The notes under the pieces: model-generated
The model's input: only the letters and a program-made list of their open reading frames with translations
What the model was told of the DNA's origin: nothing
Database searches by the model: none
Source: Naegleria gruberi
Lineage: Eukaryota
NCBI GenBank assembly: GCA_000004985.1
Contig: GG738869.1
DNA: 64,000 bases
Reading direction: 5' to 3' (one strand)
Translations under genes and position numbers: made by a program
Part shown: positions 8,423-36,694 of the stretch, one piece after another
How positions within the stretch are numbered: position 1 is the stretch's first letter
Layout of the letters: each line of letters starts with the position of its first letter

Positions 8423-9982
8423 ATGAGCCGTTCAATATCTTCCGCCACAATCATCTTGTTGATTGTTGGCATTAGCATGATCATGTTAAATTCATCTTCC
8501 TCATTCGTAAATGCTCAAGATCCAAAATCAAATGTTACCCAATTGATTCAATATTGGGGTTATCCAGTTGAACAACATTATGTAACCACAACAGATGGTT
8601 TTATTCTCTCCGTGTAGGTAATCAGGATTTTTTTTCATCATTTAATATTTATTCATCATCCATATCGTCATCATCATTAATTTTCATACTGACCAATTTG
8701 TTCATGATCGTTATCCAACATTTACAATTATTTATAATTTCATAAACAATTGATAGTCAGAGAATTCCATATGGACGTTCAAGTTTAAGTAGACAAATTC
8801 CAAAAGATAAAAAGAAGGTAGTTTTCCTTCAACATGGTTTTTTGGATTGTTCTGCTACTTGGGTTAATAATTTACCATATCAATCATTGGGATATATTTT
8901 AGCTGATGCAGGATTTGGTTTGTATTTGTTTTTTTCTAATAATTTGTTAATAATTTTAAATTATTGTCTCTTAAATTTCCATATTCGGACAATTTCAAAA
9001 AATTCCGTGGACAATAGATGTTTGGTTGGGTAATGCTAGAGGAAATGAATATTCCAATAGAAATATTTACCACTCTAAACATGATAAACAATTCTGGAAT
9101 TTTTCATGGGATGGTAAGTTTGAATATTTATTACAAAAATTGTAACAAGAAATTTCAATTCTAAATGAAGAAATGGCAATTTATGATCTTACTGCAATGG
9201 TTGATTATGCACTTAAAGTCAGTGGCCAACCAAAATTAGCCTATGTTGGTCACTCTCAAGGTACAACTATGGGATTTGAATGTTTTTCTAGTAATGCTGA
9301 TTCAAATACTAAATATCCAGCATGTCCAAAGGATTTCACAAACAAAATTTCCATTTTTATTGCTATTGCTCCAGTAACTTATTTGGAACATGTTAATAGT
9401 CCAATGATGGAAGCTCTTGCAAAACTTCATGTTGATGAAATTTTAGAATTCCTTGGTGTTGGTGATTTTTTACCAACCACTCAACAATTAGAAAAGTGGA
9501 TTCCTGGAATTTGTTCAAATTCAATTCTTCAAAAAGCTGTCTGCATGAACGTTTACTGTATAATGAGTGGTTGTGATGGTTTGGAAAATAAGGCAAACTC
9601 CTCTCGTTTACCTTTATATATGGATCGTTTACCTGCAGGAACCTCAACAATGAATGCTGGACATTGGGCCCAATTAGTTAGATCTAAGAAATTCCAAATG
9701 TTTGATTATCATTTTGGTAATTATGATCATTATCATCAAGTATCTGCTCCACAAATTGAATTGTCAAATTTACATGTTGATATTGCAATTTATCATGGAG
9801 GTTTGGATATTTTGGCAGATTACAATGATGTTAAGAAATTATTGAGCAAACTTCCAAAAGAACGTCTCAAGAATGTAATGTTCTTTAGTGATTTTGGTCA
9901 TATCGATCTCGTTTGGGGTATTAACAATTATCAACTTTTCTTCAATGATATTGTTAAAAGAGTTTCTGATTCTTTCAATTAA
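8423..9982 (+). CDS. Acid lipase of the gastric/lysosomal type (alpha/beta-hydrolase, abhydro_lipase N-terminal domain), about 417 aa with a signal peptide. Four exons: 8423..8611, 8761..8917, 9018..9113, 9171..9982.
   Basis: The N-terminus is hydrophobic (MSRSISSATIILLIVGISMIML). It is followed by QLIQYWGYPVEQHYVTTTDGFILS|RIPYGRSS...KKVVFLQHGFLDCSATWVNN...ADAGF|DVWLGNARGNEYS...FWNFSWD|EMAIYDLTAMVDYAL...AYVGHSQGTTMGF. This contains the GxSxG nucleophile motif and matches the gastric/lysosomal lipase family. Introns are gtgtag..tcag, gtttgt..caatag and gtaagt..atgaag. Phases are consistent (0, 1, 1). Confidence 0.8.
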
Positions 9983-10097
9983 ACGAAACAGAAAGGAATA
10001 ATAAATTATCTCTTTGCTATCCATATGAAAATGCATTTTCCATAATTGTTCTCTGACAATCAAATTTTCAATTCTAATAAATAAAAATCTTTAAAAA

Positions 10098-10515
10098 ATG
10101 TCTGATCTCGCAAGCAAGTTTGAACTCGCCGTCAAGTACGTCCAAGACGGAATGGCCAAGGATCAATACAAGGTATGTTATGATTTTTAATGAATTAATA
10201 GTAGTGATCATCATCGATATCTATTTGCAATTAATAATATCAAAATAATAATTGAATATTTTCTAGGATTCTAACAAGGAATTGACTGATGATGATCGTC
10301 TTCTCTTCTATGCTTTCTACAAGCAAGTTACTGAAGGTGATGTTAAGGGATCTCAACCATACGCTATCAACTTTGTTGCTAGAGCCAAATGGGATGCCTG
10401 GAACAAGGTCAAGGGTTTGTCAAAGGAAGATGCTATGCAACAATATGTTGATTTGTTGAGTCAAATGGCTCCAGAATGGTTCTCTTATTCTGGTTTGGAC
10501 AAGTACAGAAAATAA
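10098..10515 (+). CDS. Acyl-CoA-binding protein (ACBP/ACB domain), about 107 aa. Two exons: 10098..10172 and 10267..10515.
   Basis: Exon 1 is MSDLASKFELAVKYVQDGMAKDQYK, ending at AAG|gtatgt. Exon 2 follows the acceptor ttttctag| and reads DSNKELTDDDRLLFYAFYKQVTEGDVKGSQPYAINFVARAKWDAWNKVKGLSKEDAMQQYVDLL. This carries the canonical ACBP motifs (YKQ..GD....P.......KAKWDAW..LKG.SKEDAM..Y). Codon choice is C-ending, which suggests high expression. Confidence 0.8.
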
Positions 10516-10620: not shown

Positions 10621-11430
10621 ATGATGAACAATATGATGTTACGTTTTGGCAAGAAGTTAACTTCAACTCACTCTAATCAATTCATTTTCGGAAGTGGATT
10701 AATTTTGAATCAAAGAAATGTTAAAACTGATATCAACAAAATTTCAAGAGGAGACATTATTAAAGATGGACCAAATAAATATCTTCAAATTGAAAGATAT
10801 GTTTTTTCAAAGAGAGGACGTTGTAATGCTATTGTTACAGTTGAAACTGTTGATATGTTATATGGAAAAAAGATTAGTAAAAAGTATAGAGGAGGTGAAT
10901 CAGTGGATTTATGTGAATATACAACAAAGGATGTAGTTTATTCATCGGAAAATAATAAGGGATTTGTTTTTGAAGATATGAAGGATGGTACTGAATATGT
11001 TGCCTCAAAGACACTTCTTACTCCTGAAATGACACAAATCATGCAAGGAGGTTTTCTCAAAAAGATGGTTATCGGAATTGATGAAGAAACCAATCTTGCT
11101 GTTAAGGTCATGTTCCCAACAGCCCTTGTTTCAACTGTTGAGGAAACAGAAGATCCAATAAGTGGTGTACCAAATGATAGACATTCTCCAGTCACAAAGA
11201 ATGCACTCTTGGATAATGGTATTTCTATCAAAGTGCCTGGATTTATTGCAAATGGTGACAGAGTCAAATTCTCTACACGTGATTGGTCCTATGTTGCTAG
11301 AGCCACTGAAGAGGATGAAGATGATATTGAATTTGAAGATGAATCATCGAAATATGAAGACAATGAGTCGGTAGAGGAAATTGAAGAGGATGAGAATGCA
11401 GAAGATGAAGAAGACAATAAGAGGAGATAA
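10621..11430 (+). CDS. Bacterial-type translation elongation factor P (EF-P) homolog with an N-terminal presequence and an acidic C-terminal tail. Probably organellar (mitochondrial).
   Basis: 269-aa ORF starting at an ATG. The core aligns to EF-P in its KOW-like domain I (ISRGDIIKDGPNKYLQIERYVFSKRGRCNAIVTVETVDMLYGKKISKKYRGGESVD), in the OB domains (GFVFEDMKDGTEYVAS...) and in the C-terminal signature (ISIKVPGFIANGDRVKFSTRDWSYVARA versus bacterial VVKVPLFV..GE.IKVDTR.GEYV.R.). The ~45-aa N-terminal extension (MMNNMMLRFGKKLTSTHSN...) looks like a targeting peptide. The tail EEDEDDIEFEDE... is a eukaryotic-style add-on. Confidence 0.7.
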   Translation: MMNNMMLRFGKKLTSTHSNQFIFGSGLILNQRNVKTDINKISRGDIIKDGPNKYLQIERYVFSKRGRCNAIVTVETVDMLYGKKISKKYRGGESVDLCEYTTKDVVYSSENNKGFVFEDMKDGTEYVASKTLLTPEMTQIMQGGFLKKMVIGIDEETNLAVKVMFPTALVSTVEETEDPISGVPNDRHSPVTKNALLDNGISIKVPGFIANGDRVKFSTRDWSYVARATEEDEDDIEFEDESSKYEDNESVEEIEEDENAEDEEDNKRR

Positions 11431-18036: not shown

Positions 18037-18583
18037 TTTTTTTTAAAGACGTCCATTAAAATGAGCCTAAGGTTCAATTATGAGCCTAGTTTTTTTGCCC
18101 TGAGTCAGAGTTTACAATATTATAAATTATTTACTCAGTTTTCAAACAATTTGAAATAATAAATAAATATTCTTATTCATTTACATATTCCAAGCAGAAT
18201 CAAAATAAAGATTAAAATTTTAAAAAAAAGAATTAAAAATTAATGAGGGAACCACAAGTTTTTTTAAAAATATTTGATGCGCAATTGTTTGCGAGTTAAC
18301 CTACTCCAATAAGGTATGTCAATCACCCTCTCTTATGTTGCTGTCTGTTTCAGTTGTAGAGAAGCATTCAGCGTCGAAGGATAGGCATAAGAAGCCACTC
18401 TAAGACAGTTCCTTGGTACCTCTCAGAGATTGTGCCTTGTAATTCATTCAGAGTTGATACATTTTACCTTTTTCACAAATCAATTGAATTTCTCGGAAGC
18501 AAAAAAACAAATTCCGAACCTATTTTTATCTCAAATTTAAAAGCTCAAGATTCCACTTAATTCTATTTTTCAATTTGAAAAAA

Positions 18584-21034
18584 ATGATTAAAAGGCTTGT
18601 TAATAATACTCAATCAACACACAAATTGATTGGAAAGCAATGCGGACATTCATTGAGCAAATTTAATCCATCACCACTGATTGGCTTATCATTTAATTCT
18701 ATTGGTGGTATTAATAGTAGTAGTATTAATAGAAGTGGTAGCAATGTGTCAAGCTTTGGTAATAATCATTTCGGATCAATTGTGTCACAAATTAAATCCT
18801 ATCATACATCTCAATCTAATAGATTCGGAATGGGAGGAGGAAAGATGCCATGGCAAGAGACACAGTATGAAAAGGGAGAAGCCTTGAAAAAGTTTGGTAC
18901 AGATTTAACAGAAGAAGCTAGAAAGGGTAAATTGTATCCAATCATTGGTAGAGATGATGTAATTCGTAAGATATTACAAGTTCTATCAAGACAAACAAAG
19001 AGTAATCCAATCATAACAGGTGTTCAAGGTTGTGGTAAAACAGCTGTATTGGAAGGATTAGCTCAAAGAATTGTAAAAGGTGAAGTGCCTGATTCAATTA
19101 AGAATAAGAGATTAATAGCATTGGATTTGGCATCCATCATTTCTGGTAGTAAATTTAGAGGTGAATTTGAAGAACGTGTACAGGCAATTCTAAGAGATGT
19201 TAAGGAACATCAGGGAGAAATTATTCTATTCATTGATGAAATTCACATGATTGTAAGTGCTGGTAGTGCTCAAGGTTCTCTTGATATGGCAAATATGTTA
19301 AAACCATATTTAGCAAGAGGAGAACTTCATTGTATTGGTGCTACAACTTTGGATGAATATAGATTATATATTGAAAAAGATAAGGCACTTGCACGTAGAT
19401 TTGAACAAGTCACATTGAGTGAACCAACTGTTATTGATACAATTGCAATGTTGAGAGGTAGAAAGGCTAACCTGGAAGCTCACCATGGTGTTAGAATTAC
19501 AGATTCTGCCATTGTTCAAGCTGCTATTTTATCAGATCGTTATATTACTGATAGATTTTTACCTGATAAGGCAATTGATTTAATTGATGAATCATGTGCC
19601 TGTATTAAATTAGAGCAAGAATCAAAACCAGAAGCATTGGAAAAAATTGATCGTTCAATTATCATTTCACGTATTGAATTGGAATCTTTGAGAAATGAAC
19701 AAGATCCAGCAAGTATTGAAAGAAGAAAGAAAGTTGAAAAGAAAATTGAAGAAGAACAACGTGAAAGTGATAGACTCTCAAATATTTGGTATCAAGAAAG
19801 AGAAAAATTATTGAAAGCTAAAGAGTTGAAACAAAAATTAGTTAATTTGGGAAAGGAATTGGAAGAAGCTTTGAGAAAATCAGATTTCCAAACAGCTTCT
19901 GCATTGAAATACAAGACAATTCCAGATTTAAAGAAGGAAATTGAACAATCTTCAGTTGGATTCAAAATGATGAGTGATAGTGTACAAGTTGAAGATATTT
20001 CAAGAATTATTTCAAGAAAGACTGGTATTCCACTTGAAAGCTTAATGACTTCTGAAAAGGATAAATTGCTTCACATGGAAGAACACTTAGCTCAACAAGT
20101 TATTGGTCAACCAGAAGCTATCAGAGCTATTTGTAATACCATCAGAGTTTCTAGAGCTGGTCTCAGTGATCCAAAGAGACCACTTGGTTCATTCTGCTTC
20201 TTAGGTAGCTCAGGAGTGGGTAAAACATGGATTACAAAACAATTAGCTAAATTCCTATTCAATGATGAAAATGCTATGGTCAGAATTGATTGTTCCGAAT
20301 TAATGGAACCACATTCTGTCTCTAAATTAGTAGGATCACCACCTGGTTATGTTGGTTATGAAGATGCACCACAATTAACTGAATCAATTAGAAGAAAACC
20401 ATATCAGATTGTTTTATTTGATGAAATCGAGAAGGCTCACAAGGATGTTTTGAATATTTTACTTCAAATTCTTGATGAAGGTCACATTACAGATTCACAT
20501 GGTAATCATGTTAACTTTAAGAATACTATTGTTGTCATGACAAGTAATGTTGGATCTGAAATATTTACAAATTTACCTGAAGGTGTTCCATCTTATCAAG
20601 CCAAAGATGATGTTTCACAAGTTCTCAGACACTACTTTAGACCTGAATTTTTAAATCGTATTGATAATATTATTTACTTTAATAGATTGGGTAAAGAAAG
20701 TATGAGAAAGATTATTGATTTACAATTGGATGTAATTGAAAAACAATTGAGAGAAAGAAGAATGCTCCTTCAAGTAACACCAAGTGGAAGAGAATTCCTA
20801 TCACGTGTTGGTTATGATATTTATTTTGGTGCTAGACCTTTAAAGAGAGCTATTCAAGTTCACTTGTTAAATCAATTGGCAACTTTATTATTGGAAGGTC
20901 AAGTTAAGGAAAATTCTGAAATACTTGTTGATTACGTTCCTGGAAAATTGAATGAAGATGGTGAAGAAACTTTACAAATTACTGGAAAGATTTTACCTGA
21001 ACAAATTGTTGAAACTAATGTTGAAAGAGATTAA
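18584..21034 (+). CDS. ClpB/Hsp104/Hsp78-family AAA+ disaggregase with two nucleotide-binding domains. The N-terminal presequence suggests a mitochondrial Hsp78-type protein.
   Basis: The ORF track starts at 18575 with a TTG. The first ATG is at 18584 ([18 protein letters not shown]...). NBD1 Walker A is [10 protein letters not shown] and its Walker B is ILFIDEIH. It has a ClpB-type middle coiled-coil ([11 protein letters not shown]...LKKEIEQ). NBD2 Walker A is GSSGVGKT, with a sensor/arginine region [24 protein letters not shown]...R.EFLNRID.IIYFN. Confidence 0.85.
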
Positions 21035-21197
21035 GAATCAACACTTATGTAAATATTATTGAATAATTCAAAGACATTCCCAGTTAACTGAATGGTATTT
21101 AGATGAGAAGAAGTGAAAGCAAATCTCACATTTCTAATGAAAGACAAATATTCCAATAAAATGTCAAACAGATGTTGCAATGTAATAATTTACTCTT

Positions 21198-22373
21198 TTA
21201 TTCTAAACACAATCTTTTCATATCTTCCAAAATTGAGCAACAAACTTCTTCGCTTCTCCTTCCAAGTCCACAACTAGTCGCAACACCAATTGGATATTTG
21301 AAGCTCTTACAAATATCAGAAATGTGTTTCAAAATGAGACTTTGATTTTCCTTTGAGGATTTTTCATGAATAAATCCAGCATGATATTGAATTTGATTAT
21401 TAAGATCTCCAAGTGGTTCATAAAACTTTCTATCAACACTTGGTTCAATATCACCCTCAGCAAGTGGTAAATGAATAAATTCAATACTTCTATCATATGG
21501 GAATATGTAAACTAAATTATTTGAGAAATTGACAATTGACTGAACGTTCTCATCCTTTGAAAGATTAATAGAAGCCTTATTATTAATATCTCCCAAACAA
21601 ATGTGAAAACCTATTGGAATATCCTTATCAATTTTAGAAACTAAATGTGAAATTGATTCCATAGCCCACATTCTGAATAATGGAAATTGATAATACATTG
21701 TAAATTCAATAGGAAGTTCAATTTGAACTACAAAGTCAACTGTACCACTTTCTTTAATGGAAATCTTTTTCATTTCATTAACTTCATAAGCAATTCTATC
21801 AATATTAAATAAGCAATCAGAAGATCTACATAAAATAACTTACCTATCATTGAATGATTTGTAAGTCCACCAAGACCAAAATAAACTCTTTGTTAGTGAT
21901 AAAGAAATGGCAAGACCAGTCGGAATTCCAACTTGAAATTTCACATTTGATTTCAAATTATTTTCACTTGCCAACTTTTTAAAAGTAGGAAAACTCTTTT
22001 CAAAATATTCCAAATAAGTTAGAGGCATATCTAGAATAAATCCAGTTGACCAACTTTTAGGTCTAAATTCAGGTAAATACTTAAAATCCACAGGAAAACC
22101 CTTTTCATTCAAAACTGGAGTTTCCTTCATTGGAAGAGAATACCATTTATCTGTAAAATGATCCAAAATTCTCTTTATAATAATTTGAACCCAACTCTGA
22201 CGATCACCACCAGTGAAACGTTCACTCTTCTCACCAATTTCACCATCAGGAATTGTCTTGAGAAGAATTCCAAATTTTTCAATGCATGTTTTTAAGGCTA
22301 CTGATTCACTTTCTAATGGTAAACTACCAACAAGATGACAACAACGACAATGTGTTGAATTTATCATGCTCAT
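21198..22373 (-). CDS. Cobalamin-independent methionine synthase (MetE) C-terminal-like domain protein, a putative zinc-dependent homocysteine-type methyltransferase of about 375 aa. Two exons: 21843..22373 and 21198..21794.
   Basis: ATG at 22373 (MSMINSTHCRCCHLVGSLP...). The donor is AATGATAG|gtaagt and the 48-nt intron 21795..21842 ends attgatag. Frame continues as ...NDRIAYEVNEMKKISIK.... The downstream exon has IGFHICLGD (His-x-Cys), an intervening Glu, and GVATSCGLGRRSEE. These are spaced like the MetE/UroD-like zinc triad (HxC...E...C). Confidence 0.6.
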
Positions 22374-22835
22374 GTTATTTTGATGGAATTTATATAGATT
22401 GTTAGGAGGGAGTTGTGAGTTGTTTGTTGTTTTTTTTTCAATGAGTTCTTGTGATGGTGGTAATTGTGTGTTGTGAATTTAAATGAATGAGGAAAATGTA
22501 CGCAGCACCCGACAAAACCAATCAAATAAAAATTGTCTTATTACAATGAATAATAAACGTTTCCTGGTGATTCATTTGTACTAAATTGGAAGAACTATTG
22601 TGATAGGATTTTCAATATCTATATCGAACCTTCAGTTGGAAGAATGGTGTAAAGATTTTCAATAATTATTTGTTAAAGAGCTTTGAAAGATTGGAATTCA
22701 AGTTGATAATCTTGGTAACCTTATCTATGGCTGAACAAAAACTGAATGGTTTTACCAAACATTTAAAAGAGGCAATTACCGTCTCCAAAGATATATTCCA
22801 AATTAAAACAATCGCATAAAACATTTTTTGAAAAA

Positions 22836-24899
22836 ATGATGCAAAGTGAAGAGGATGCATCCTCACTAAAATCCTATCCATCCTCTAATCATCATCATCA
22901 TTATGATCATCATCATCGTACCGGTAGTAGTAGTGGTACTGGTAATGGTGTTAGTAGTACAACCACTACACCTGTTTCTCCAGTAAAGAAAAAAGTAGTA
23001 GCCTTTGGATCCGATGTTAGTGATGATGAACAACAAGATGAAGATAGTGAATTAATTGTTTATATGGATGAGAGTAGATTATTTAACAAACATCGTAATC
23101 ATTATTCATCTTCCAATAATACCTCATCCAATTCTACTGTTAATAATTCATCTAATCAAGGCTCAAATGATGAAGAATTAACAGCCTTTGAAAATTTCTC
23201 AAATTCAGTTTCGGGAACTAAAATTTCATATTCAAGTCGTAAAAGAAGAGTATCTGTTTGGATACCAACTTTATCAAATGGTTTAATTTCATCACTAACT
23301 GCTAAAATTACAAATACTGTTGAATTTGATTTTAATAAGAAGAATTTAGATTCAAATGCTAGTCCTATGAAAGAAAAGAAATATGTTGGATATTCTATTG
23401 ATATTACAATTGGATTTAATAATGATCATACTAAATGTCAATGGTCTGTTATAAGAAGATATAATGAATTTAAGAAGTTTTATTCACTTTTAAAGAAAAC
23501 ATGTACAAATAAGGATAAATTTGGATTAATTAAATTTCCAAATAAGAGTCCAATTACAAGTTTTAACGATTCAAATTTATTAGAATTTAGAAAAAAGATA
23601 TTTAATGAATTTTTGAGTTCAGTCATTTCAATGGCTTCACATGAAACTGAAGAAGGAAAGAAAATTTCTTCTTTTGAATTTTTGATTTATTATTTTTTAG
23701 ATATTCATAATTCACCTGTTTCATTTTTATTTGATCATCCATATGGAGAAGTTTTTAAACAAATTAATCAATTTTATCAAACAACAAGAGAAGAAAAGAG
23801 AAGATTAAAAAGATTAATTGAAATTGAAAGAAATTATGATGAAGAACAAGAAAGTGATAATGCTCAATATTTATTAAGAGAACAAGAATGGTATGAATAT
23901 AAATTTCAAAGACTTGAAGAATTAAATAGAGAATTAAATGAATTAAGATTAGGAGGTGATGATTTTTTTATAGATTTAAAAGGAAAACCACATATTCTTT
24001 CAGTTGATAAATTATCAAGTTCACTTCATATTTATTTATTAAGTGAAAATACATCTGATAGATTAGAACATACATTTGTACAACAAATTTATATAGATTC
24101 AATTCAAATTATTAGAGAATGTAATTCAACATATAGAGGAGATGGATTTGAAATGATTGATATTCAATTATTGAATGGTGAATCTTTTCAATTTTATGTT
24201 TTTGATAGAAAGGAATTAATTTACTCTGTTGGTGCTCAAGTTAATCAGTACAAATTAGCAAAAGCTAAATTTATTAACTATCTTGTTTGTACAGTTTTAA
24301 GATTGAAAAAGGAAAAATATGATGAAAGTAATCAAATTCATGAACAAGATTTAATGGAACTTTATTCATTACTTAAACCTGATGATCCACTTACAAAGAG
24401 AAAATCAAGACAATGGATTAATATTGGATTTCAAGGTGATAATCCTTCAACAGATTTTAGAGGAGGTGGTTACATGTCATTGAGAATGTTATTATTCTTT
24501 GCTCAAAATGAAAGTGAAACGATGAAATTATTATTAAGTGATCATGCTGATTATCCATTGTGTGTATCTGGAATTAATTTATTCTTTACTTTATGTACTT
24601 TATTAGATTTGGATAATATTTCAACATCACCTACTATTGAAAGTATTGAAGAGAAATTTCCACTTTTCAGATTTTTATGTCTTTTATTGAAGAATAATTA
24701 TGAACAAGATTGTGAACATTTATTTGGACAAGCATTCATTCTATTATGTAGATTATTACACAAAATATTCATTGATGAATGTGCTGGATATATGGACTAT
24801 CCAAATATTGTGGAAAAGTGTAAAAAATTATTAGAGGAGGCACTTGTAAAGAGACCAAATGATTTTGATAGTTTGAGAGTTTCACTTGGTCTTTTATAA
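22836..24899 (+). CDS. PX (phox-homology) + ELMO/CED-12 domain protein, 687 aa.
   Basis: ATG at 22836. The N-terminus is low-complexity with a His run (HHHHYDHHHR). The PX-like region is YSIDITIGFNNDHTKCQWSVIRRYNEFKKFYSLLKK...FPNKSPI...LEFRKKIFNEFLSSV. The C-terminal ELMO-domain signature is KRKSRQWINIGFQGDNPSTDFRGGGYMSLRMLLFFAQ. Confidence 0.75.
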   Translation: MMQSEEDASSLKSYPSSNHHHHYDHHHRTGSSSGTGNGVSSTTTTPVSPVKKKVVAFGSDVSDDEQQDEDSELIVYMDESRLFNKHRNHYSSSNNTSSNSTVNNSSNQGSNDEELTAFENFSNSVSGTKISYSSRKRRVSVWIPTLSNGLISSLTAKITNTVEFDFNKKNLDSNASPMKEKKYVGYSIDITIGFNNDHTKCQWSVIRRYNEFKKFYSLLKKTCTNKDKFGLIKFPNKSPITSFNDSNLLEFRKKIFNEFLSSVISMASHETEEGKKISSFEFLIYYFLDIHNSPVSFLFDHPYGEVFKQINQFYQTTREEKRRLKRLIEIERNYDEEQESDNAQYLLREQEWYEYKFQRLEELNRELNELRLGGDDFFIDLKGKPHILSVDKLSSSLHIYLLSENTSDRLEHTFVQQIYIDSIQIIRECNSTYRGDGFEMIDIQLLNGESFQFYVFDRKELIYSVGAQVNQYKLAKAKFINYLVCTVLRLKKEKYDESNQIHEQDLMELYSLLKPDDPLTKRKSRQWINIGFQGDNPSTDFRGGGYMSLRMLLFFAQNESETMKLLLSDHADYPLCVSGINLFFTLCTLLDLDNISTSPTIESIEEKFPLFRFLCLLLKNNYEQDCEHLFGQAFILLCRLLHKIFIDECAGYMDYPNIVEKCKKLLEEALVKRPNDFDSLRVSLGLL

Positions 24900-25276
24900 C
24901 AATTTTAATTAAATTTAGTAATTTAAGTTCAGTTGTAAATTTCATCATCCACCATGATGGATCTTCAAAATAACTCATTTTCAAAGACTAGTTGGAGTAT
25001 CTCATCAAATCTTGAGGTTTAGGATCAAACAGTAATTATGCCAAAGTTTCTTCAATTTCTTTTTCACCAATTTGCATTTGTTTACAGTTTCGATCAAACG
25101 TGATGTGGTTCAATGAATCCATTACAAGTTGTTTGAATGACAAAGTCTTTGCAATCCAAAGCTGTGCAGAAATGAACCTTTCATAAGGCTTTCATTATCT
25201 CCACACTCCGTAAGCAACAGGAGTTTAGGTCCTACCTAATTAATCATTCTCATCACAATGCCAGCTGTCAAAAAAA

Positions 25277-26956
25277 ATGGGTTCAACGATTTCACAAAGT
25301 GAAAGTAATGTTGCTTCTTTTTTTGCGGAAGATGATATTGTTGGTGATGATGGATCCATCTATAATCACCAACAATATTCAACAAAAAACAATTCAGCCA
25401 CCACTTCTAATTCTACTAATTCTAATTCTAATAATTCTAATGTTTCTAATAATAATACTATTAATAATAATATATATTGTGTTGGATGTAGTGATGGAGG
25501 TAAAACTTCATTTCACAATCAATTAAAATCCAAATTTCACATGAAAATTCACAAGAATGAAAAAATCAGAGCTACACTCATCATTAAAACTTGTCTATCA
25601 TCAATTCAAGATATAATTTTCATTGTCATGTCAGATCAAGAAAGAAATGATTTTATTCATAAAATTAAAAAATCAGATCCACAAATTTATGATTTTTTAC
25701 TCAACTTGACAAATATTACAAGAAAATGGGAATTTACAAAATCAGAATCAATTCAATATGGACAATATATTAGAATGATATGGTCTAAATATAAAATAAT
25801 ACAAGAATTATATTATCTATATAAGGATTCTCATCATTTAATTGATAATATTGATGTGTTGTGTAATGAAATGAATATTATTATTTCACAATTATCAGAT
25901 CATCAGAAAAATCAATTTTTAAAAAATACTAAACGACGATTAAATCAACGTTTAAATTCTACCACTGAAATTGTAACAAGTAATTCTTTAAATTGTAATC
26001 AATTGGAAAATAATTTATATGATCAAGATGATGAAGAAGATGGAGAAGAACAGCAACAACAAGATGCTGAAGATTTATATCAATTAGATAATCATATTAA
26101 TAATATTATGAATTCAAAAAAAAAGTCAAAAAAAATTTCAATATTTTCATCTAAATTTAAATCTAATTTTAATTCATCTCAACAAAATAATAATAATACA
26201 TCTCTAAATAATGAAAATAATAATGAAAATAATAATACTAGTCATTATGATAAATATTCACCACTTATTAAATTTTTAACAATTGGTAAAAATGAAACAA
26301 AATTTCAATTTGATTCTAAAAATTTATTTACAATTTTAGATTTAGGTGGAAGAGGAGCAGAAAAAAAGAAATGGGAATTCTTTTTAAATGAAACTAATGC
26401 TGATTTTGTTTTATTTTTTGTCAGCATGTCTGAATTTAATCAAAATTTAATTGAATCTGATAATATAAATAGATTACATGAAAGTTTAACTATATATAGA
26501 GATATTATTAATAGAGCTTTATTAAGAAATACTAAAGATATTATTTTAATATTTACTAAACCTGATATATTTTTACATAAAATGGAAAATAATATTGAAT
26601 TTAAATTACCAAATATAGAAGGATTAAATATTCCTAAAATGGAAACTATTAGACCTGAATTATTAAAATTAAAAGATAATATTAAATTAGAAATTAATAA
26701 TTTAATTAATTTATTTGAAAATATTCATTTAAATTCATTTAATAATATAACATTTAAATATCATATTGTAAATATAATAAATATTAAAGAATGTCAAGAA
26801 TTTATTGAAATTTTATTAAGACAAACAATTGTAAAAGATTATATTGAAAATTCATTACATAAATTGACAAGTATAAATTATTCTCCTTTTATATCAAAAT
26901 GTTTATTTAAGGAAAGTAAATTTGAAATTCAAAGATTTTTATTTTTCAGATTGTAA
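25277..26956 (+). CDS. Highly divergent heterotrimeric G-protein alpha-subunit-like GTPase (559 aa) with long Asn-rich insertions.
   Basis: The G1/P-loop is VGCSDGGKTSF (compare GAGESGKST). The G3/switch II is ILDLGGRGAEKKKWEFFLNETNADFVLFFVSMSEFNQ (compare DVGGQRSERKKWIHCFE.VTAIIFCVALS.YDQ). The G4 is IFTKPDIF (compare NKKDLF). N-runs and the block (NENNNENNN) lie between the Ras-like segments. Confidence 0.65.
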   Translation: MGSTISQSESNVASFFAEDDIVGDDGSIYNHQQYSTKNNSATTSNSTNSNSNNSNVSNNNTINNNIYCVGCSDGGKTSFHNQLKSKFHMKIHKNEKIRATLIIKTCLSSIQDIIFIVMSDQERNDFIHKIKKSDPQIYDFLLNLTNITRKWEFTKSESIQYGQYIRMIWSKYKIIQELYYLYKDSHHLIDNIDVLCNEMNIIISQLSDHQKNQFLKNTKRRLNQRLNSTTEIVTSNSLNCNQLENNLYDQDDEEDGEEQQQQDAEDLYQLDNHINNIMNSKKKSKKISIFSSKFKSNFNSSQQNNNNTSLNNENNNENNNTSHYDKYSPLIKFLTIGKNETKFQFDSKNLFTILDLGGRGAEKKKWEFFLNETNADFVLFFVSMSEFNQNLIESDNINRLHESLTIYRDIINRALLRNTKDIILIFTKPDIFLHKMENNIEFKLPNIEGLNIPKMETIRPELLKLKDNIKLEINNLINLFENIHLNSFNNITFKYHIVNIINIKECQEFIEILLRQTIVKDYIENSLHKLTSINYSPFISKCLFKESKFEIQRFLFFRL

Positions 26957-27241
26957 TTTTATTTGTTTACAGTAATAAATTATTTAAATAATATTATAAA
27001 ATATTCAATTACTATTCTTCTCCAATCAGCTGTATTCACTAACTTATTTACATAAAACGAATAGGTAGCATAGATCTTACTCAGAGATCTTATCCTCTAA
27101 ACTAGATTCGAACTATTACAAGTATAATATTACAAATATATCAGTTTCTTCATAATTATCTTTTGATTTTTGTAATTGTTAAATTAGAAGCTAATTAGAT
27201 CTCTAACAAAGGCTAAAAAAAAACTTCTTCAAATAAAAAAA

Positions 27242-29703
27242 ATGTCTTCAACCGATAATCACCAACAACAACAACAATTATTAAAATTTGAACTTGTTCA
27301 ATCACTTGTTGATCATGAATTTTGGTACGATCTGGAAAATAAAAAGTTATTAGAATACAAATTAGATAACAAGCCTAAACAAATTCAAGCCTCCTATAAT
27401 ACTGGTAAATTATTTAATTCTCAAGTATTAAATGCTACTCATCATACTAATGATCAAGTAAATCTTAGTTCCAAGTTGAGATTGGGTGAAAATGCTTTTG
27501 ATCATCATCATTTAAATACTTCCAATACTATTAATACTATTAATACTACTATTAACAATAATAATAATTTATATTATTCAAATGGTACATTATATAATGC
27601 TAATACTATTGAAGAATTTAATAATTATGATAAAAAGAGTATTTTAAGAAATGTTGGATTAGAAACAATTTATAACAAAATTGTTAATCAAGAATGGTTA
27701 AAAAATCCAAATGAATTAACTCACTTTTTATTATTAACATTTGCAGATTTAAAACAACATGCTTTCCATTATTGGTTTGCATTTCCATCTTTATCTTTAT
27801 CTGATATGGAAATTAAATATGAAAAATCAGAATTATTAAATGAAGAAATTCAATTAAAATTACAAAATGAATTATTAACATTTAAATCTAATCATTCTAA
27901 AGAAGAACATGGATTTTATTTAATTATTGAAAATGAAAATTCTTATCAAATTAAATCACTTTCTGAATTTGAAAATGTTATAAATGGAAATGAAAAGTAT
28001 TATTTAGGATTTTCAGATCCATCTGCATTGAATGAATATCCATCAATGATTTTAAGAAATTATTTATTAGCAAGTTATTTAACATTTAAAAAAGATTTAT
28101 TTAATGTTATTGCTTTTAGACAAGATCAAAGTTTATTATTAAAAAATGTTAAAATTACAACAAGTATTGAAAATATTGAAAATATTCAAGAATTAAAAGA
28201 TAAAATTTCAGTTATTGGATGGGAAAAGAATACTAAAAATAAATTAGGACCTAGATTTACAAATATGGGAAGTACAATGGATCCAATTAAATTAGCAGAA
28301 AGTTCAGTAACATTAAATTTACAATTAATGAAATGGAGAATGTTTCCAACACTTAATTTAGATAAATTAGGTAAAACTAAATGTTTATTAATTGGAAGTG
28401 GAACACTTGGATGTCATGTTGCAAGAAATTTAATGGCGTGGGGAATATTTAATATAACATTTGTTGATAGAACACGTGTTAGTTTTAGTAATCCAGTTAG
28501 ACAACCATTATATGAATATGAAGATTGTTTAAATGGTGGTAAAGATAAAGCATCATGTGCTGCTGAACATTTACGTAGAATTTATCCAAATGTTAATGTT
28601 CAATCACATAGTTTAGATATTCCAATGCCAGGTCATTTCATTACAGATCGTCAAAAAACTTTAGAATCCTATAAGAAATTACATGACCTCATTGAAGAAC
28701 ATGATGTTATTTATTTATTAACTGATACAAGAGAATCAAGATGGTTACCTTCGTTAATTGGTATTAGAAAAAAAAAGATTATTATTAATGCTGCTTTAGG
28801 TTTTGAATCTTATCTTGTTATGAGATATGGTGTTTATGGTGATAATAGCAATGATAACAACAATAATGATAGTACTAATGAAAACAATGATGAATTTAAA
28901 GAAATGACATCAAAGAGATTGGGTTGTTATTTCTGTAATGATGTTGTTGCTCCTGTTAATGTAAGTAAGAATAATATGACAATTTCATGTGTGATAATGA
29001 ACTATATATTGAACTAACTATATATTGAAATATTTTATAGAGTACAAAGGATAGAACACTTGATCAACAATGTACTGTAACAAGACCAGGAGTTAGTGCC
29101 ATTGCAGGATCCTTAGCAGTTGAATTACTTGTTTCATTGACACATCATCCAGAATATAAATATGCTTCTGCATATAATCCAACAAGTCAAAATAATGATG
29201 GACATGTTGAGTCAGATTTAGGAGTTGTTCCTCATCAAATTCGTGGATCAATTTCAAATTATCAAACCAATTTATTATATGGTTCAAGTTATAATCAATG
29301 TACTTGTTGTTCTCCAATTGTTTTGCAAAATTATGCAAAGGATGATTTTAATTTCTTGGAACGTTGTTTTAATGATTCTAAATATTTGGAAGAATTAACT
29401 GGTTTAAAACAATTACATGAACAAACTTTGAAATTATTGCAAGATTTTGATTATTCAAGTGAAGAAGAAGAGGATGATGAAAATATTAATGAAAAATCGT
29501 CAACAACAAAGGAGCAACAAGCCTCCACAATTACTACCACAGAAAAGAAGGAAGAAGCATTGACAGAAATGAGTAAAGAAGCACTTATTGAAAAGATTAA
29601 ACAACTTGAAAAGGAGAATCAACAATTGAAAAAGACTCACCCACCTTCCAAGGCTACTGCTACAGATGAAGAGGATGATTTGGATGGATTTGAGGTTCTT
29701 TAA
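27242..29703 (+). CDS. atg7: Autophagy E1-like enzyme Atg7, about 789 aa. Two exons: 27242..28960 and 29053..29703.
   Basis: The N-terminal domain (FELVQSLVDHEFWYDLENKKLLEYKLD) is Atg7-specific. The adenylation domain is KCLLIGSGTLGCHVARNLMAWGIFNITFVDRTRVSFSNPVRQPLYEYEDCLNGGKDKASCAAEHLRRIYP. Exon 1 ends CNDVVAPVN|gtaagt. The 92-nt intron carries an ACTAAC branch-like motif and ends ttttatag. Exon 2 reads STKDRTLDQQCTVTRPGVSAIAGSLAVELLVS (catalytic Cys region), followed by a C-terminal coiled/acidic tail. Confidence 0.85.
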
Positions 29704-32657: not shown

Positions 32658-32707
32658 NNNNNNNNNNNNNNNNNNNNNNNNNNNNNNNNNNNNNNNNNNN
32701 NNNNNNN
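32658..32707. other. Assembly gap of 50 N.
   Basis: Run of N. It interrupts the 5' part of the DNA polymerase eta gene. Confidence 0.99.
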
Positions 32708-33754: not shown

Positions 33755-35854
33755 ATGCAATCATTTCAATCTTCACCACCATCCGAACCTCTTCCCTCCT
33801 GCTCTTCAACCACTTGCCAATCCTGCAGAAAACTCCACAGAAAATGTGATAAACTTCTTCCGTCCTGTTCCTACTGCACAAAAAGAGGCTACGTTTGTTG
33901 TTATGAAAAAACCAGAGATGAACAATCGGTTGTAATCCGAAAAAAGAATGAAAACCCTTCGTTAAATTATCATCTCCATCATGACAATGATACAACTCTT
34001 GTAAATAATAGTAATCATCATAATAATAATAATAATTTAGTATCATCTGGATTTGATAGTAGTAGTAATAATATGATGATGGTGATGAATAATAGTAATA
34101 ATAATTTTAATGTAAATAATAATAAGCAAAATAGGTATAGATCGGTTCCTTATCAATCGACTGCTGGTTCTTCGTTGATATTTTCCTCTCAAAGAAATGA
34201 AAACAATTCTATGAATTATTCAATGATGATGAATGATTATCAACAGCAGCAGCAATCAGCAGCTTTTGTAAATATTGCAAATATGTTTAATNNNNNNNNN
34301 NNNNNNNNNNNNNNNNNNNNNNNNNNNNNNNNNNNNNNNNNNNNNNNNNNNNNNNNNNNNNNNNNNNNNNNNNNNNNNNNNNNNNNNNNNNNNNNNNNNN
34401 NNNNNNNNNNNNNNNNNNNNNNNNNNNNNNNNNNNNNNNNNNNNNNNNNNNNNNNNNNNNNNNNNNNNNNNNNNNNNNNNNNNNNNNNNNNNNNNNNNNN
34501 NNNNNNNNNNNNNNNNNNNNNNNNNNNNNNNNNNNNNNNNNNNNNNNNNNNNNNNNNNNNNNNNNNNNNNNNNNNNNNNNNNNNNNNNNNNNNNNNNNNN
34601 NNNNNNNNNNNNNNNNNNNNNNNNNNNNNNNNNNNNNNNNNNNNNNNNNNNNNNNNNNNNNNNNNNNNNNNNNNNNNNNNNNNNNNNNNNNNNNNNNNNN
34701 NNNNNNNNNNNNNNNNNNNNNNNNNNNNNNNNNNNNNNNNNNNNNNNNNNNNNNNNNNNNNNNNNNNNNNNNNNNNNNNNNNNNNNNNNNNNNNNNNNNN
34801 NNNNNNNNNNNNNNNNNNNNNNNNNNNNNNNNNNNNNNNNNNNNNNNNNNNNNNNNNNNNNNNNNNNNNNNNNNNNNNNNNNNNNNNNNNNNNNNNNNNN
34901 NNNNNNNNNNNNNNNNNNNNNNNNNNNNNNNNNNNNNNNNNNNNNNNNNNNNNNNNNNNNNNNNNNNNNNNNNNNNNNNNNNNNNNNNNNNNNNNNNNNN
35001 NNNNNNNNNNNNNNNNNNNNNNNNNNNNNNNNNNNNNNNNNNNNNNNNNNNNNNNNNNNNNNNNNNNNNNNNNNNNNNNNNNNNNNNNNNNNNNNNNNNN
35101 NNNNNNNNNNNNNNNNNNNNNNNNNNNNNNNNNNNNNNNNNNNNNNNNNNNNNNNNNNNNNNNNNNNNNNNNNNNNNNNNNNNNNNNNNNNNNNNNNNNN
35201 NNNNNNNNNNNNNNNNNNNNNNNNNNNNNNNNNNNNNNNNNNNNNNNNNNNNNNNNNNNNNNNNNNNNNNNNNNNNNNNNNNNNNNNNNNNNNNNNNNNN
35301 NNNNNNNNNNNNNNNNNNNNNNNNNNNNNNNNNNNNNNNNNNNNNNNNNNNNNNNNNNNNNNNNNNNNNNNNNNNNNNNNNNNNNNNNNNNNNNNNNNNN
35401 NNNNNNNNNNNNNNNNNNNNNNNNNNNNNNNNNNNNNNNNNNNNNNNNNNNNNNNNNGATCTATTTACAGCAGAGAAATAGTGCATCGGGAATAGAGTCA
35501 TTATTTGATTTTGGAGAGGATATCTTTTCCATAGAGTCTCTTTCCAATTCATCACCAAGCTCATCAAATTGCTCGAAAGAAAATCTAACACCACAAACCA
35601 TTTTCGATACCTATCAGTCAGATTACGCCCCACTTTTCCGAGACTTTGGTATAGATATGGAAATAGTTGATGTATTCATTGAGAATATGAGTGAACAAGA
35701 AAAATTATTTCATAATGACAAGACGAAACTAGCAGAAAAGAGAATGGAACTTGTAGAATCTTTCAAGGCAATATCTGGAAAGAAGAAGGATGTATTTGGC
35801 ATTGTAGCTTGTGAATTTTTAAAGAAACAACTTCTTTTTAATGAAAATAACTAG
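33755..35854 (+). CDS. Zn(II)2Cys6 binuclear-cluster (Gal4-type) DNA-binding protein, Asn-rich. The coding region is interrupted by the 1166-N gap (34292..35457), so length and frame continuity across the gap are unknown.
   Basis: ATG at 33755 (MQSFQSSPPSEPLPSCSSTT). It is followed by CQSCRKLHRKCDKLLPSCSYCTKRGYVCCY, which matches C-x2-C-x6-C-x6-C-x2-C-x6-C spacing. Downstream are N/M/Q-rich tracts (NNNNNN, MMMVMNN, QQQQQ). After the gap an open frame continues to a stop at 35854 (…IESLFDFGEDIFSIESLSN...KKQLLFNENN*). Confidence 0.55.
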   Translation: MQSFQSSPPSEPLPSCSSTTCQSCRKLHRKCDKLLPSCSYCTKRGYVCCYEKTRDEQSVVIRKKNENPSLNYHLHHDNDTTLVNNSNHHNNNNNLVSSGFDSSSNNMMMVMNNSNNNFNVNNNKQNRYRSVPYQSTAGSSLIFSSQRNENNSMNYSMMMNDYQQQQQSAAFVNIANMFNXXXXXXXXXXXXXXXXXXXXXXXXXXXXXXXXXXXXXXXXXXXXXXXXXXXXXXXXXXXXXXXXXXXXXXXXXXXXXXXXXXXXXXXXXXXXXXXXXXXXXXXXXXXXXXXXXXXXXXXXXXXXXXXXXXXXXXXXXXXXXXXXXXXXXXXXXXXXXXXXXXXXXXXXXXXXXXXXXXXXXXXXXXXXXXXXXXXXXXXXXXXXXXXXXXXXXXXXXXXXXXXXXXXXXXXXXXXXXXXXXXXXXXXXXXXXXXXXXXXXXXXXXXXXXXXXXXXXXXXXXXXXXXXXXXXXXXXXXXXXXXXXXXXXXXXXXXXXXXXXXXXXXXXXXXXXXXXXXXXXXXXXXXXXXXXXXXXXXXXXXXXXXXXXXXXXXXXXXXXXXXXXXXXXXIYLQQRNSASGIESLFDFGEDIFSIESLSNSSPSSSNCSKENLTPQTIFDTYQSDYAPLFRDFGIDMEIVDVFIENMSEQEKLFHNDKTKLAEKRMELVESFKAISGKKKDVFGIVACEFLKKQLLFNENN
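34292..35457. other. Assembly gap of 1166 N.
   Basis: Run of N inside the Zn2Cys6 gene. The X-only ORFs in the track (34275..35495 on the plus strand, 34287..35633 on the minus strand) are artefacts of translating N. Confidence 0.99.

Positions 35855-36064: not shown

Positions 36065-36694
<630 letters not shown>

Follow-up and report, generated by a model that had tools for sequence, protein, structure and literature searches.

Canonical Gα subunits of heterotrimeric G proteins, such as transducin/Gi1 (1TAD, 6OY9) and Naegleria fowleri Gα7 (6NE6), belong to the Pfam family PF00503 and share a two-domain fold, the G1, G3 and G4 motif cores, a switch-II ExKKW sequence with its reporter Trp, an NR(M/L)xES block at switch III/α3 and an MGxxxS N-terminus. 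Three of their positions are substituted in oncogenic mutants (Gsα Q227R/L and R201C/H, Gq Q209L/P, Gi1 G42V), in which GTP stays bound, hydrolysis fails and the protein is constitutively active. Here we describe a gene in a 64,000-nucleotide stretch of Naegleria gruberi DNA (contig GG738869.1 of assembly GCA_000004985.1; hereafter the window), whose product has the features common to the canonical subunits and is nevertheless substituted at the same three positions, with a Gln-to-Arg change identical to that of Gsα Q227R. The gene is a single uninterrupted open reading frame (ORF) at 25277..26956 (+), and its product of 559 amino acids (aa), P0001, is 100% identical over the full length to an uncharacterised N. 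gruberi "predicted protein" on a 747-kb scaffold. We propose that this protein is probably a GTP-binding but hydrolysis-impaired Gα-like switch, as judged from its sequence.

Two other groups of described proteins invite comparison. The plant extra-large G proteins XLG1-3 are likewise Gα-derived, with drifted motifs and a function that has, in part or altogether, ceased to depend on the GTPase cycle, and P0001 would resemble them at most in behaviour. XLGs have a long N-terminal domain rich in Cys and bearing a nuclear localisation signal, retain Gβγ binding and have lost their nucleotide motifs much further, whereas P0001 has only 64 disordered residues before β1, contains no Pfam domain other than Gα and thus lacks the XLG architecture, keeps the GK-T, T, DxxG and KxD elements, and has an independent evolutionary origin. 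The atypical small GTPases Rnd and RhoH carry G12/Q61-equivalent substitutions, hold GTP and barely hydrolyse it, and are controlled by expression or localisation, while mammalian Gzα has a very slow GTPase and a Ser at the same P-loop position as P0001 (GTSNSGKS). These proteins differ from P0001 in that Rnd and RhoH belong to the Rho family, Gz keeps both Gln and Arg, and none of them has the C-terminal module described below.

Naegleria Gα subunits with altered catalysis are, as a general phenomenon, already on record. A review names Naegleria, together with plants and Dictyostelium, as having Gα subunits that deviate in their catalytic motifs (PMC8584482), and lineage-specific diversification of the N. 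gruberi family has been reported (PMC3971589). N. fowleri has 13 Gα subunits, of which six have been characterised (PMC9283941); a Gln-less Gα is not discussed in the passages of that study that were searched. We found no description of P0001, of its orthologue, of the clade signature or of the C-terminal module in the accessible literature.

A Gα protein with substituted catalytic positions

The Pfam Gα profile (PF00503) matched P0001 at 134.9 bits (E = 4.8e-39), against a gathering cut-off of 48.8, and no other GTPase or NTPase family (Ras, Arf etc.) was matched in the Pfam scan even at E ≤ 10. A phmmer search of PDB sequences gave 353 matches at E ≤ 1, the best 60 of which were all Gα chains, headed by transducin/Gi at about 2e-14. 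Structure prediction with AlphaFold2 (AF2) from a 93-sequence alignment produced a model with a mean predicted local distance difference test score (pLDDT) of 74.8, a predicted template modelling score (pTM) of 0.70 and 250 residues at pLDDT ≥90. It holds a Ras-like domain together with an all-helical domain at about aa 95-204 (25559..25888, +), situated between P-loop/α1 and β2 and made up of helices 95-117, 120-133, 135-142, 144-149, 155-171, 173-182 and 192-204 at pLDDT 87-96. Foldseek comparison of the model with PDB placed Gα structures alone among its best 50 matches (G13, Gs, Gq, G12, Gt, Gi and plant GPA1), with target-normalised template modelling (TM) scores of 0.65-0.78 and alignments covering the whole target; matches to full-length Gα chains scored 0.72-0.78. 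Given the strong profile match and the Gα fold, neither a lack of Gα homology nor a generic P-loop resemblance describes the protein: no small-GTPase profile was matched, and the helical domain is present. P0001 is therefore a member of the Gα family that carries the substitutions set out below, in agreement with the original prediction of a Gα-like but very divergent protein.

Conservation of individual residues was assessed in the same 93-sequence alignment, which comprises P0001 and 92 Gα sequences from an exhaustive HMMER search; in the P-loop and in both switches I and II, the phmmer pairwise alignments agreed with its register. The G1, G3 and G4 cores that had been noticed from the DNA (GCSDGGKT, DLGGRGAEKKKW and FTKPD) were all located in the ORF. 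The G1/P-loop, GCSDGGKT at aa 70-77 (25484..25507, +; aligned by phmmer to N. fowleri Gα7, 6ne6), conforms to the pattern GxxxxGK[ST] as G70-C-S-D-G-G75-K76-T77, with Gly75 and Lys76 invariant in their columns and Thr77 kept. It was rightly read as departing from GAGESGKS; its third position, equivalent to Ras G12 and Gi1 G42, is Ser72, where 71 of the 82 sequences with a residue have Gly. Switch I, LIKFLTIGKNE at aa 330-340 (26264..26296, +; phmmer register against transducin), retains the Mg-binding Thr335 (T in 86/92) and Gly337, while the arginine-finger position is occupied by Lys332 (R in 83/92), so that the RxxTxG pattern is lost. In comparison with Gi1, linker 2, which runs between the conserved Pro and switch I, is short by about 6 aa.

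The G3/switch II segment is DLGGRGAEKKKW at aa 355-366 (26339..26374, +). Asp355, Gly358 and the switch-II reporter Trp366 are kept, and the catalytic Gln, which 80 of the 92 other sequences have, is Arg359, which bears out the predicted loss of the Gln of DVGGQ and leaves no DxxGQ motif; Lys363 stands at the position equivalent to Gi1 R208 (R in 91/92). The NRxxES block retains Asn398, Arg399 and Glu402. In G4, FTKPD at aa 426-430 (26552..26566, +), both Lys428 (K in 91/92) and the guanine-specifying Asp430 (D in 90/92) are kept, and the Asn found in 82/92 is replaced by Thr427, in line with the TKPD reading of this motif. In the β6/G5 region, YHIVNIINI at aa 495-503 (26759..26785, +), the canonical TCAT(D) has become VNII(N). 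The earlier description of a non-canonical Gα paralogue is supported and, in view of Lys332, Ser72, the degenerate G5 and an αN and C-terminal tail that appear to be missing or replaced, conservative. The oncogenic mutants, for their part, are somatic, otherwise canonical and still coupled to receptors, Gβγ and effectors, whereas the changes in P0001 are germ-line, evolutionarily fixed and combined in one protein whose N- and C-termini are remodelled as well.

Orthologue, termini and low-complexity inserts

A search of 1.84 billion representative proteins returned 2613 matches at E ≤ 1e-3, among which the sole close relative was P0002 (E = 5e-43), encoded on a 14-kb contig (L001) whose gene order (DTW, Vps26, aminotransferase, PX, ELMO, Gα, ATG7) agrees with that of the window. 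Scans of metagenome DNA gave pattern matches in two scans, none of which was confirmed by tblastn. Word-indexed homologue searches yielded hardly any matches other than P0001 and P0002, also after removal of low-complexity regions, and they likewise missed homologues for sequences already present in the alignment. The P0002 gene contains a 102-nucleotide phase-1 GTAAGT...CAG intron within G3 (DVG|GR; L001 9246-9347), which the N. gruberi gene does not have and which has accordingly been gained or lost; because of it, a prokaryote-style gene caller had split the orthologue into two 'proteins', the second of which carries no recorded Pfam match. Once spliced, the orthologue is an intact 893-aa ORF that scores 124.5 bits against the Pfam Gα profile and whose G3 reads DVGGRASEKKKW, showing that the Gln-to-Arg substitution is common to both species. 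The two proteins further share MGSTIS, a CSDxGKT P-loop, LTIGK(N/S)ET, FTKPD, YHIVN, PFISKCL and QRFL. The orthologue departs from P0001 in its P-loop, SCSDCGKT, where the first Gly is missing, in its switch I, LIRCLTIGKSE, where the arginine finger is indeed an Arg, and in a Ser/Thr/Asn/Met-rich in-frame insert of about 260 aa after G4 (aa ~465-720; L001 ~9470-10250) that is absent from N. gruberi.

In the core block from switch I to G4, P0001 and its orthologue share 67% identity across 109 aa (E = 8e-51), with a proportion of nonsynonymous differences (pN) of 0.21 against a synonymous one (pS) of 0.66, and the helical domain is 51% identical. Since synonymous sites are saturated (pS 0.66-0.81), which makes dN/dS semi-quantitative, we relied on the contrast of pN and pS alone. 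Over the whole protein identity to the orthologue is 43%, compared with 55-81% for the neighbouring genes of the same genome pair, so that the Gα evolves faster overall than its neighbours, with a core identity on a par with that of ATG7 and DTW. The gene is intact and under selection, and is a lineage-specific Gα paralogue of Naegleria.

Both ends of the protein depart from the canonical plan. The first six residues, MGSTIS (25277..25294, +), are identical in the orthologue and form an N-myristoylation-type start (Gly2, Ser6), which we take to agree with the MGxxxS consensus. They are followed, in place of the canonical αN, by a region at aa 7-64 (25295..25468, +) that is acidic and then Asn/Ser/Thr-rich and is 31% identical to the orthologue. 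In the AF2 model aa 1-60 are disordered, with pLDDT <50 over aa 1-23 and 26-48, and the long αN helix is missing, the sole helix there (aa 8-16) being of low confidence. In the clade members P0009 and P0012, introduced below, about 19-23 residues precede β1. At the other end, a long α5 (aa 503-532, pLDDT 92 falling to 77) and a clade-specific 27-aa extension (together 26783..26953, +) are found where a canonical Gα has its short receptor-binding tail. The extension contains PFISKCL (26885-26905, +) and QRFL (26930-26941, +), both conserved in the orthologue, and a helix at aa 538-558 is modelled there at a pLDDT of about 50.

Between helix αF and switch I, P0001 has a 119-aa low-complexity insert (aa 206-324; 25892..26248, +), which includes the NNNNTSLNNENNNENNNTS tract and which canonical subunits do not have. 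Most of it is modelled at pLDDT <50; its identity to the orthologue amounts to 13%, and its pN is close to its pS. The long poly-Asn inserts of the original prediction were overstated as homopolymers, the longest Asn run in the protein being 4 residues, although Asn-rich low-complexity tracts do exist, at aa 36-65 (30 residues, 47% Asn) and at aa 296-322 within the 119-aa insert (27 residues, 52% Asn). The inserts are unconstrained loops, and the Asn-rich tracts would be disordered segments with no specific role. A low-complexity insertion also occurs at this site, directly N-terminal to switch I, in N. fowleri Gα6 (NF0049200), which differs from P0001 in that its wild type is apparently activated by AlF4-/Mg2+, which would imply competent catalytic residues (PMC9283941). 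The pre-switch-I inserts of P0001 and its orthologue cannot be aligned with each other, and low-complexity inserts come and go at different loops of the one fold.

Nucleotide-binding and hydrolysis residues across a wider clade

More distant relatives share a signature with P0001, consisting of xKPD in G4, [YF]H[IV]xN in G5 and a C-terminal [FY]ISxCL, with [FL]xD[IV]x[IF] after it in the majority of members. These are P0009, P0012, P0015/P0151, P0018, P0125 and P0023, the last being an N. gruberi paralogue (XP_002677043) on the same scaffold as P0001 and outside the window. ISxCL occurs in P0012, P0151, P0018 and P0023, while P0009 and P0125 have the G4 and G5 signatures without an exact ISxCL; all members that were scanned (P0009, P0012, P0018, P0023 and P0151) passed the Pfam Gα threshold, at 119-172 bits. 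In a neighbour-joining tree of 95 Gα sequences, the clade, with the addition of P0153 as the closest relative of P0018, was monophyletic in 235 of 300 bootstrap replicates, and the pair of P0001 and its orthologue was recovered in all 300. For P0018, a compact member, AF2 modelling (pLDDT 78.5) gave a short α5 followed by the ISxCL segment at a pLDDT of about 87 and by a terminal helix.

Despite an overall identity of about 25%, two elements are invariant in the clade, the P-loop Gly that is Gly75 in P0001 and the K-P-D of G4. The Gln position, by contrast, is occupied by R, R, V, Q, T, K, K and Y in the different members and the arginine-finger column by K, R, S, H, S, K and Y, and in P0018 and P0023 the G3 Asp is lost as well (TAGGK). 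Invariant K-P-D and Gly residues next to variable Gln and Arg columns point to constraint on nucleotide binding and to relaxed constraint on hydrolysis. Outside the clade, the 533-aa protein P0014 has independently acquired a Lys at the arginine finger and an Arg at the Gln position (TVKVKTTG and DVGGRRNERRKW), with FTKYD as its G4.

These observations are consistent with a mechanism where N-myristoylation would anchor P0001 to the membrane, guanine nucleotide would still be bound, and GTP would be hydrolysed very slowly or not at all, so that the protein would stay 'on' or act as a very slow timer. It would not cycle as a receptor-driven Gα does, and control would instead be exerted through expression, localisation or partner binding. 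The GTPase deficiency is inferred from sequence, on the precedent of two single substitutions at the positions concerned: Gsα Q227R, a tumour variant whose gain of function is ascribed to inhibition of the GTPase (PMC9959179, Table 1, citing Landis 1989), and Gi1 G42V, reported as GTPase-deficient (PMC9283941). With no confidently modelled αN and a conserved C-terminal extension replacing the tail, P0001 is also probably not a classical Gβγ-bound, GPCR-activated subunit. This uncoupling from the classical cycle, which a low-confidence region of the model suggests, is the weakest step of the proposal. We further consider, tentatively and as a doubtful extension, that the clade may represent a previously undescribed and probably heterolobosean-specific class of non-cycling proteins, namely myristoylated membrane adaptors that would be permanently GTP-loaded or nucleotide-stabilised, would use the C-terminal module, in place of the receptor-binding tail, as an interaction surface and would operate outside the receptor/Gβγ/RGS cycle.

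Several points weigh against a GTP-binding, hydrolysis-impaired switch. The αN is missing from a part of the AF2 model that is of low confidence; two orthologues are known, with saturated synonymous sites between them; and, as the orthologue keeps the arginine finger, loss of that Arg is not a conserved feature. Moreover, the degenerate G5 (TCAT to VNII), the replacement of the G4 Asn by Thr and the orthologue's SCSDCGKT P-loop without its first Gly mean that nucleotide affinity may be low, as in plant XLG2. Taken to its end, and with the G3 Asp missing from clade members P0018 and P0023, this line of evidence would make P0001 a nucleotide-free or very low-affinity pseudo-Gα, a pure scaffold like XLG2, in keeping with what is known of XLGs, whose nucleotide-binding motifs are weakly conserved, whose GTPγS binding is very low and which function without GTP binding (PMC8584482). 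We regard such a scaffold as unlikely, because both orthologues keep residues that serve nucleotide and Mg2+ binding only (GK-T, Thr335, Asp355/Gly358 and Lys428/Asp430), and because K-P-D and Gly75 have stayed invariant across a clade so diverged elsewhere. In canonical Gα proteins, in addition, G5 contacts the guanine through its backbone, so that a change of G5 side chains would be tolerated, which also counts against a nucleotide-free protein.

The residues that have replaced Gln and Arg could, conversely, be functional: at the Gln position, an Arg or a Lys might contribute to non-canonical catalysis, or a dedicated GTPase-activating protein (GAP) could supply what is missing, leaving P0001 a fully cycling GTPase that uses Arg359 and/or Lys332 in cis or a partner in the style of RapGAP and the Gln-less Rap. 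Both catalytic positions do carry basic residues, namely K332/R359 in P0001 and R/R in its orthologue, the same Lys and Arg pair as in P0001 has arisen independently in the unrelated P0014 and could be workable rather than broken, and Naegleria is described as having a large RGS repertoire and GAP-limited Gα signalling (PMC9283941). We nonetheless consider a cycling enzyme improbable: the Gln position of the clade (R, V, Q, T, K or Y) is chemically inconsistent and resembles relaxed constraint more than a new catalytic residue, Gln-to-Arg at the equivalent position of Gsα inhibits the GTPase (PMC9959179), and RGS proteins stabilise the Gln and Arg of the Gα itself and supply no catalytic residues (textbook background and PMC9283941). 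A decaying pseudogene, a gene-model artefact or a generic P-loop look-alike might be suspected from the unusual composition (20% GC in the coding sequence, 14% Asn in the protein), from the faster evolution relative to neighbouring genes and from an annotation that goes no further than 'predicted protein'. Such an origin is extremely improbable and effectively refuted by 559 uninterrupted codons at a third-position GC content (GC3) of 0.09, by equally low GC3 in the neighbouring genes, by an intact orthologue in conserved synteny, by a core pN far under pS, by a Pfam Gα score nearly 3 times the threshold in the absence of any competing family, and by the confidently modelled helical domain that defines Gα proteins. 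A GTP-binding Gα-like switch with impaired hydrolysis thus remains the reading that we favour.

Genomic setting and significance

The complete, single-exon P0001 gene has immediately upstream of it a gene with PX and ELMO domains (ELMO/CED-12; 22836..24899, +) and on its other side ATG7, which starts at 27242; the PX-ELMO fusion gene and ATG7 bracket the Gα in both genomes. Farther upstream in the window lie genes for a ubiquitin hydrolase, a DTW protein, Vps26 and a ClpB-type AAA+ ATPase. The last, a ClpB/Hsp104-type double-AAA+ gene (Pfam AAA_2, AAA_lid_9 and ClpB_D2-small; 18575-21034, +), stands between an aminotransferase-like ORF and PX-ELMO, and its slot is empty in the otherwise collinear orthologous contig (L001 4794-5121), a sign that one of the two genomes has gained this gene by insertion or the other has lost it. 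A 269-aa ORF at 10621-11430 (+) has a significant match to PF09285, the C-terminal domain of elongation factor P of the bacterial type (E = 1.7e-14). For a eukaryotic nuclear gene such a match is unusual, and the product may be organelle-targeted. The real sequence of the window stops at 36694, with runs of N at 32658-32707, 34292-35457 and 36695-64000 (scaffold gaps and end padding); the listed ORFs 33755-35854, 34275-35495 and 34287-35633 cross Ns and were set aside as artefacts.

Base composition was considered as a mark of foreign origin or decay and was rejected as such, as the three adjacent N. gruberi genes (22836-29017) all have a GC3 of about 0.09-0.11; the low GC of the Gα coding sequence reflects its amino-acid composition. 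A dictyostelid source, which the AT-richness and the Asn tracts could suggest, was likewise rejected, since the 100% match of P0001 is to N. gruberi, a heterolobosean amoeba. The orthologues of these three genes on L001 have a GC3 of 0.29-0.32. Two spacers of the window (21035-22835 and 24900-25276), at a GC content of 0.30-0.33, exceed the adjoining coding sequences (0.20-0.27), a reversal of the usual pattern.

Gα proteins are timed switches, and natural versions in which the timer is gone reveal what the fold must retain for signalling in the absence of cycling; they parallel both the oncogenic human mutants, such as Gs Q227R, and plant XLG. The Naegleria G-protein system is an expanded one, comprising self-activating as well as receptor-dependent Gα subunits, and in N. 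fowleri it is under study as a source of drug targets. To this repertoire, a conserved paralogue without the catalytic Gln would add a third behaviour. The practical value is modest, in the form of a defined candidate and a clade signature for hydrolysis-independent Gα function outside plants. Should the clade prove to be a distinct class of non-cycling Gα adaptors, the finding would gain in interest.

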